Of a stretch of 1,744 nucleotides of DNA, positions 51 to 272 are shown in pieces. The position numbers and the translations under genes are program-made. Position 1 is the stretch's first letter, and the number at the start of each line of letters is the position of its first letter. The notes below the pieces were generated by a model. That model did no database searches and had not been told where the DNA came from. It saw only the letters and a list, made by a program, of their open reading frames with translations. Source of the DNA: Escherichia coli (lineage in GTDB: Bacteria > Pseudomonadota > Gammaproteobacteria > Enterobacterales > Enterobacteriaceae); assembly GCF_003334255.1 (NCBI RefSeq), contig NZ_QOWU01000151.1, one strand, 5' to 3'.

Positions 51-272
51 TTATCGGTGCTGGTTGATGAGGCTTTGCAGTTCTGCCAGATCTTCGGCGA
101 GATAGCTGAAGACGGCAGCGCAGTAACGGTTTGATAGTGCGTGCGTGCGCTCATGCAGCATGTTGATATGCATGATTTGTGCGACGCGTGTTGCGCGGAA
201 AAGTCTGCGGTTGATTTCAGTCTGGATGTGACGACGCTCAGCGCGGGCGCGCTGTTGCTTGCGGTTTGCCAT
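51..272 (-). CDS. hypothetical small basic protein (73 aa), possibly a nucleic-acid-binding regulator
   Basis: Complete ORF, ATG at 272..270 and TAA at 53..51. Shine-Dalgarno AGAGG lies 7 nt upstream of the ATG (minus strand, complement of 280..284). Codon usage resembles well-expressed enterobacterial genes (CGC, AAC, ATC, CTG preferred). Arg/Lys-rich N-terminus (MANRKQQRARAERR) followed by helix-like segments. No family assignment possible from memory. Confidence 0.7.
   Translation of the reverse strand: MANRKQQRARAERRHIQTEINRRLFRATRVAQIMHINMLHERTHALSNRYCAAVFSYLAEDLAELQSLINQHR

Follow-up and report, generated by a model that had tools for sequence, protein, structure and literature searches.

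The E (epsilon) protein of the satellite phage P4 is an antirepressor that lacks DNA binding of its own and acts through the C repressor of phage P2 (PMC2995052). The epsilon-C complex is unable to bind DNA, and two mutations in P2 C, T67I (sos) and I70N, weaken the interaction with epsilon (PMC2995052; also PMC8628076). The Rfam models RF01394 and RF01695 correspond, respectively, to P4 seqA and to the P4 CI immunity RNA (PMC3632133, PMC10111431). The immI region of phage P1 (and likewise of P7, with c4, icd, and ant1/ant2) carries an RNA of the RF01695 family, and there the antisense RNA silences an antirepressor. The annotated layout of P1 immI runs a1, b1, c4, a2, b2, icd, ant, and the b2 box stops 10 nt short of the icd ATG. 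Among the P2-like phages, Tum of phage 186 is a functional analogue, a small phage-encoded antirepressor that is controlled by LexA and acts on the 186 CI-type repressor, which is unrelated to the P2 C type. In the lambdoid prophage Gifsy-1 of Salmonella, the isrK-orf45-anrP operon combines an isrK-family leader, a terminator, and read-through, and a processed RNA, STnc1160, is found downstream of IsrK (PMC4825925). The Gifsy-1 orf45 frame starts just after IsrK, is translated, ends as AUGA on the antirepressor gene anrP, and is conserved at the nucleotide level without conservation of its amino acid sequence (PMC4825925).

We analyzed a stretch of 1,744 nucleotides of Escherichia coli DNA, referred to throughout as the window, which carries on its minus strand a 73-aa gene at 51..272 (ATG at 272..270, stop codon TAA at 53..51). 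By homology, its product belongs to the P4 epsilon, or Derepression, family (PF25738, phrog_3688). The initial annotation had held that the protein has no recognizable family, a claim that is overturned by the HMMER search against Pfam that it had itself suggested: hmmscan assigns residues 10-65 to PF25738, "Derepression protein family," with an E value of 3.7e-7 (30.2 bits). P4 epsilon, the type member, matches the same model over its full length (E 1e-50), and PF25738 is precomputed for nearly all homologues of the 73-aa protein. An identical protein is present on 738 contigs under the NCBI/UniRef name "derepression protein," although the window's own RefSeq record labels it hypothetical. 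The gene is already catalogued and is no orphan, and the useful result is its genomic context.

The relationship to epsilon is remote, and several comparisons recover it. BLASTP aligns the 73-aa protein with P4 epsilon at 32% identity over 50 aa (pairwise E 8e-9), and tblastn against all phage records returned matches only in Xuanwuvirus phages and P4. When an 8-sequence alignment of the P2-like-phage subfamily was compared with a 14-sequence alignment of P4-type epsilon proteins, hhalign gave a probability of 96.4% and an E value of 1.4e-9 over 57 columns. The PHROG matches are reciprocal, the 73-aa protein finding phrog_3688 and then phrog_10016 and epsilon finding phrog_10016 and then phrog_3688, which places the two in separate subfamilies. 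Both share the core motifs E-x4-L-x-RA and SYL-x-(E/D)D, and six residues (E19, L24, R26, A27, Y57, and D61) are invariant in 10 sequences that include P4 epsilon. The window protein is 22 residues shorter than epsilon (73 versus 95 aa), lacking the C-terminal tail of ~25 residues, and it has a basic N terminus that is absent from epsilon and lies outside the aligned region. That N terminus bears out an earlier description of it as rich in Arg and Lys, with 6 K/R among the first 16 residues and a pI of 11.3 for the whole protein. The C-terminal helix that had also been predicted is present at residues 48-71 of an AlphaFold2 model (10-sequence alignment; mean pLDDT 85.5), where it forms a two-helix hairpin with a second helix at residues 2-39. 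A sequence search of the PDB, in which the family has no solved structure, returned only chance-level matches (histones and bZIP proteins, E > 0.2), and a Foldseek search of the model against the PDB and BFVD returned nothing at E <= 0.001 and only generic helical hairpins. Homology to P1 Icd, which has the same length (73 aa) and the same position, was considered and rejected: no BLASTP alignment was obtained at E <= 100, and the Icd-like NCBIfam model NF033153 does not match the 73-aa protein even at E <= 1.

The 73-aa ORF is a real gene rather than a chance ORF, because substitutions pile up at the third codon position and because its own frame is better conserved than the other two. Differences from the homologue in phage P88 fall 6/6/22 across codon positions 1/2/3, amounting to 15 synonymous and 10 nonsynonymous codon changes. 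Across eight loci, amino acid identity in the ORF frame exceeds that in both other sense frames in 27 of 28 pairs, and the remaining pair, P88 versus 4B11, is near-identical and does not discriminate between frames. The protein has 194 homologous clusters. A conserved frame on the opposite strand, which the initial annotation had raised as an alternative, is contradicted by stops in all three antisense frames over the ORF in every homologue. The Shine-Dalgarno sequence reported for the gene is there as described (AGAGG at 280..284 on the minus strand, 7 nt before the ATG); it is kept in P88-like loci and is more variable in divergent ones. The gene has a GC content of 0.55 and a GC3 of 0.62.

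A divergent arrangement with a membrane-protein gene had been noted, together with a repeat-rich region between the two genes. The arrangement holds (the ORF is on the minus strand, and the membrane-protein gene is on the plus strand at 656..1120); the region, however, is not a plain divergent promoter spacer and holds two RNA genes together with their repeated target boxes. Nearest the ORF, at 329..416 on the minus strand, is an antisense RNA of the C4/P4-CI type (RF01695), which matches its model over the full length at 80.4 bits against a gathering score of 45. Upstream of it, at 452..526 on the same strand, lies an isrK/P4-seqA-like leader RNA (RF01394; 67.2 bits against a gathering score of 50) with a predicted intrinsic terminator, a stem at 472..457 followed by a U run. 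A promoter-like site, TTGCCA-18 nt-TACATT, is located at 533..562 on the minus strand, immediately upstream of the isrK 5' end; both of its hexamers are conserved among relatives, and the spacer sequence between them varies. C4 and isrK lie directly upstream of the gene in all loci tested. A 56-aa ORF with a TTG start over C4 (283..453) had no Pfam match. Folding of the leader by itself predicts a stem between CUCUG (318..314) and UAGAG (285..281) that encloses a conserved inner hairpin (311..288), a pairing that would also sequester part of the Shine-Dalgarno sequence in cis and that recalls the alternative structures described for Gifsy-1 isrK-orf45.

Annotation of the isrK or C4 RNA is absent from every public record of these loci that we examined. 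The RNAs are instead overlaid by protein annotations, namely, an "ash family protein" pseudogene called by PGAP (L016:1766-2029), a 205-aa "transcriptional regulator" in P88_4B11 (L005:4690-5307), and an opposite-strand "hypothetical protein" in P88 (L002:6276-6464).

Two segments of the C4 RNA, both of them variable among relatives, have exact complements upstream and downstream of it in the window. The segment at 372..364, CUGCGUUUG, forms a hairpin loop and is complementary to an upstream box at 486..478 and to a downstream 9-nt box at 283..291 on the minus strand (CACACGUAG), whose position is that of b2 in P1. The segment at 357..351, CUGCGAA, is a single-stranded stretch and is complementary to an upstream box at 501..495 and to a downstream 7-nt box, UUCGCAG, at 319..325 on the minus strand, whose position is that of a2 in P1. 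The two upstream boxes lie within the isrK leader. Of the two downstream boxes, the 9-nt one abuts or overlaps the Shine-Dalgarno sequence AGAGG, and it stops 10 nt short of the ATG.

Thermodynamic models were of little use in assessing this pairing: RNAduplex predictions of C4 with its targets ignore intramolecular structure, and RNAcofold, which cannot represent loop-loop contacts, gave a ddG near 0 for C4 plus targets. We therefore relied on covariation. Alignments of seven divergent loci show different box sequences, but the three copies of each box change in concert (the loci L007 and L009 were compared with a register shift of 1-3 nt). Over a larger set of 67 IMG/VR and reference loci, there are 20 box combinations, comprising 13 nine-mers and 7 seven-mers. 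The downstream copies are paired at 8-9 of 9 and 7 of 7 positions throughout, and the upstream copies match this except in a few loci of two combinations (7/9 and 6/7). The distance from the end of the 9-nt box to the ATG is always 10 or 13 nt in these 67 loci. A further 20 loci were missed by the C4 sequence pattern, and C4 and isrK are present at the same place in them. Together, these data strongly support, on comparative grounds, pairing of the C4 RNA at the translation start region of the 73-aa ORF, and the collection of loci shows that box specificity diversifies, as expected of an immunity determinant.

As in P4, a seqA/isrK-like leader and a CI/C4 RNA open the operon, a replication gene closes it, and the order of the isrK match, the C4 match, and the epsilon-family gene is the same in both. 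The window gene, however, resides in a complete P2-like, helper-type prophage and epsilon in a satellite, and the epsilon-like gene of the window is the first ORF after the RNA, with a target box at its own Shine-Dalgarno sequence, whereas in P4 an ORF that does match the Icd-like model NF033153 follows CI, and the GTG start of epsilon overlaps the stop of that ORF. P4's old 137-aa "cI gene product" ORF (L003:2669-3085, minus strand) extends over the CI RNA, whose conserved AUG lies in its frame, and carries the Icd-like domain at residues 85-132; it ends on the epsilon GTG, which makes the P4 order P1-like, i.e., RNA, Icd-like ORF, antirepressor. The same boxes are readable in the P4 sequence as GUGAGAA and UUCACAGG; AGGAGG and an AUG come after the second.

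The window resembles P1 in having two short boxes upstream and two downstream of the RNA, with the SD-proximal box 10 nt from the ATG, and the regulatory logic would be the same, with an antisense RNA silencing an antirepressor; the box diversity of window-type loci is consistent with heteroimmunity, as in P1/P7. The antirepressor of the window is nevertheless unrelated to Ant1/Ant2 of P1/P7, a homologue of Icd is absent from the window, and the repressor is of the P2 C class in the window prophage and C1 in P1. With Gifsy-1 the window shares the isrK-family leader, the terminator, and presumably read-through, and STnc1160 occupies the place that C4 has in the window, but Gifsy-1 is a lambdoid prophage whose downstream antirepressor, AnrP, is not of the epsilon family. 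Both the gene family and this type of RNA control are already known; what the window adds, incrementally, is their direct C4-epsilon arrangement in a helper-type phage.

The initial annotation had suspected a phage or island origin, and the element is indeed a prophage. The window matches the chromosome of E. coli DETEC-S792 at 100% and sits there within a P2-like prophage adjoining dmsA, whose genes encode a P2-family capsid, terminase, and portal, a replication endonuclease (gpA), an integrase, and a helix-turn-helix repressor. The nearest isolated phages are P88 and other Xuanwuvirus members (Peduoviridae), with which the window has only positions 58-592 in common, at ~88% identity; this segment comprises the 73-aa ORF and the upstream spacer. 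The P88 paper reports phage release after mitomycin C and contains no regulatory analysis. The prophage repressor (L001:17293-17634, WP_000247831.1) matches P2 C (PDB 2xcj/2l49) with an E value of 6.8e-15 over 86 residues. By gene content and by these similarities, the window prophage is P2-like, of the P88/Xuanwuvirus type, with a P2 C-type repressor, and the known target class of epsilon is thus encoded in the same element as the 73-aa gene.

The survey of neighbors in other genomes that had been recommended showed isrK-C4 upstream of the gene and a replication gene or primase downstream. In divergent P2-like prophages the 73-aa gene is located between the C4 RNA and replication gene A, and gene A follows in all of the P2-like loci that were examined. 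More distant members of the family, at 39-47% identity, occur in other P2-like prophages, in which isrK-C4 ends 56 nt before the ORF and Phage_GPA lies downstream, and a 33%-identical member is found in a satellite-like element, upstream of a primase and in an operon headed by a C4 RNA. At a coverage of at least 80%, the module (window 51-570) is present in 1152 of 5426 complete E. coli genomes, such that about a fifth of them would carry a P4-type immunity RNA directly gating an epsilon-type antirepressor just ahead of a replication gene. Such a module suggests that helper-type phages have a second layer of immunity, based on RNA and with diversifying recognition boxes. It also shows that P4's helper-derepressing protein has relatives inside helper-like phages, which bears on the coevolution of satellites and their helpers.

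Given this context, the 73-aa gene probably encodes an RNA-gated, epsilon-type antirepressor that acts on a P2 C-type repressor. An antirepressor was among the options originally proposed, alongside a repressor and a nucleic-acid-binding factor, and it is the one that homology to P4 epsilon favors. In such a scheme, the promoter-like site at 562..533 would drive the isrK/seqA-like leader, and the leader transcript would either stop at 472..450 or read through into C4 (416..329) and on into the gene. Transcription from the cassette's own promoter would supply isrK and C4 in the lysogen, and C4 would pair with the two downstream boxes and block initiation at ATG 272; the 9-nt box abuts the Shine-Dalgarno sequence 10 nt before the ATG, so C4 should block translation initiation. 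By analogy with P1 and P4, this block would exert polarity on the downstream genes that end in replication gene A. Were C4 to be titrated or bypassed, or were the boxes of an incoming phage unlike those of the resident, the protein would be made and the C repressor inactivated. We infer that the 73-aa protein would bind the C repressor of its own prophage or of a related resident P2-like prophage and remove it from DNA; the translational block, the polarity, and the promoter activity of the cassette are likewise inferred. The protein may serve to induce its own prophage, to overcome the immunity of related lysogens, or to lock the lytic decision.

Several observations weigh against this antirepressor model. 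Similarity to P4 epsilon is remote, as noted above, and the residues of P2 C implicated in epsilon binding, T67 and I70, differ in the prophage repressor, which has H and T at the equivalent aligned positions. Cox already switches off C synthesis, leaving no obvious need for an antirepressor. A search for LexA boxes gave 10 matches at two mismatches where 7.25 are expected by chance, none of them near the promoter, and no LexA box or other induction signal for the cassette was found; in this, as in the P2 C type of its repressor, the window differs from the Tum system of 186. Finally, an open +1 frame, described below, is an additional constraint that the antirepressor model does not explain.

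The ORF might alternatively serve mainly as a translated leader, whose C4-controlled translation would prevent Rho-dependent polarity and so license the phrog_3237 gene and gene A, with the protein itself being secondary. There is precedent for such an arrangement in icd, for ant of P1, and in orf45, for anrP of Gifsy-1, where upstream translation is required for the downstream gene (PMC4825925); the 73-aa ORF is comparably placed, as the first ORF after C4 and in the position of icd in P1, and gene A is always downstream in the P2-like loci. Conservation of the amino acid sequence, however, evident in the frame identities, the position-3 excess, and the epsilon motifs, is not expected of a mere leader, and orf45 by contrast is conserved at the nucleotide and not at the amino acid level. 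Moreover, 69 nt separate the end of the gene from the next start codon, a distance that offers no geometry for direct coupling. We regard a predominant leader function as quite improbable on these grounds, although the leader and antirepressor roles are not mutually exclusive. The protein could also act on something other than a C-type repressor, be it nucleic acid, bound through the Arg/Lys-rich N terminus, a host factor (as a cell division inhibitor like P1 Icd or P4 kil), or a replication protein that it would regulate. The high pI and the basic N-terminal helix outside the epsilon-aligned region would suit such a function, as would a length and position equal to those of P1 Icd and a location always just upstream of a replication gene, in phages and satellites alike. 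The significant relatives of the protein are nevertheless epsilon-family proteins only, similarity to P1 Icd is undetectable at the thresholds given above, fold searches yielded nothing specific, and P4 E itself has no DNA-binding capacity (PMC2995052). A different target accordingly seems unlikely to us.

A further alternative would make the epsilon-like frame incidental and assign function to the long "Ash" frame on the same strand. This +1 frame occupies 1..412 on the minus strand of the window, running from the conserved AUG of C4 (412..410) through the whole 73-aa gene and out of the window, into the prophage record to about L001:11969, where its stop lies 11 nt past the start codon of the following gene. 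It is without a stop from ~300-350 nt upstream to ~300 nt downstream of the ATG in seven of seven divergent loci and in 84 of 84 loci overall, and in 65 of those 84 its stop overlaps the start of the next gene as ATGA. The 205-aa "transcriptional regulator" of P88_4B11 is annotated in this frame, and its 5' part, the isrK-C4 stretch, matches Pfam Phage_ASH (E 1.4e-5). That match does not extend to the part over the ORF, and conservation of the +1 translation does not exceed that of the +2 frame, which contains stops; identity in the +1 frame is below that of the ORF frame in 27 of 28 pairs, with P88/4B11 a tie, and the most variable nucleotide position is the second codon position of the +1 frame. 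The 73-aa ORF, in turn, has a conserved Shine-Dalgarno sequence and ATG of its own, and its product has an experimentally identified homologue. It is hardly credible, in our view, that the +1 frame encodes the functional product.

The openness of the +1 frame nonetheless calls for comment. Calculated for each sequence with the encoded protein kept constant, the probability that the +1 frame is open by chance is 1-13%, and only 1 of 145 observed variants would create a +1 stop, where 6.3 are expected. A frame that is open and yet unconserved in sequence looks selected for openness rather than for sequence. Gifsy-1 orf45 is the nearest precedent, but the window frame runs across the first gene and stops at the second, unlike its Gifsy-1 counterpart. 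In P88-type phages the frame is ~150 codons long from the C4 AUG or ~210 from an ATG just upstream of the promoter; most relatives have this in-frame ATG ~20 nt upstream of the -35 hexamer, and the window, which has the membrane-protein gene inserted there, lacks it. We tentatively raise the possibility, which we do not favor, that a +1 "conveyor" frame selected only for openness runs over both the isrK-C4 cassette and the epsilon-like gene, the same DNA serving as RNA gene, antirepressor gene, and conveyor ORF, in helper-type phages that carry the same RNA-plus-epsilon module as the P4 satellites. When transcription came from an upstream early promoter, ribosomes in the +1 frame would melt the isrK terminator and the C4 fold and would carry translation on into the genes that lead to replication gene A; RNA made from the cassette's own promoter would instead stay untranslated and fold into the immunity RNAs. 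If this were true, cross talk between helper phages and P4 satellites, or a common origin of helper derepression, would be possible.

Several minor observations concern the neighboring genes. The membrane-protein gene separates the RNA cassette from the early genes as a strain-specific insertion. RefSeq places its start at 473 (473..1120, plus strand), which adds 61 codons opposite the isrK RNA; ATG 656 is the likelier start, because the match to the PHROG 6315 profile begins from that codon (residues 6-154 against profile positions 2-149 of 152). PADLOC and NCBIfam gave no match for this gene, nor for the 73-aa ORF and its neighbors. A downstream 138-aa ORF was considered as a homologue of P4 ORF151 and was ruled out, as the two have no homology.

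The DUF4406 gene at 1094..1443 on the minus strand of the window appears to be frameshifted. One frame (1443..1366) encodes its conserved N terminus, MAVIYIAGPMTG, and then reaches a stop, and the remainder is encoded in another (1408..1094); the intact homologue in L009 has 112 aa, and RefSeq annotates just the 104-aa remainder in the window. Elsewhere in the prophage locus, Rfam identifies an STnc130 sRNA (124.8 bits) at L001:18771-18905 on the minus strand, between the prophage integrase and dmsA; this site coincides with or adjoins the prophage end and may be the attachment region. Directly after replication gene A, P88-type phages carry ParM/StbA-like partition genes (L002:1366-2641, L004:8575-9850, and L009:10353-11716), which have no counterpart at that position in the window prophage and suggest an option of plasmid-like maintenance in the P88-type phages.
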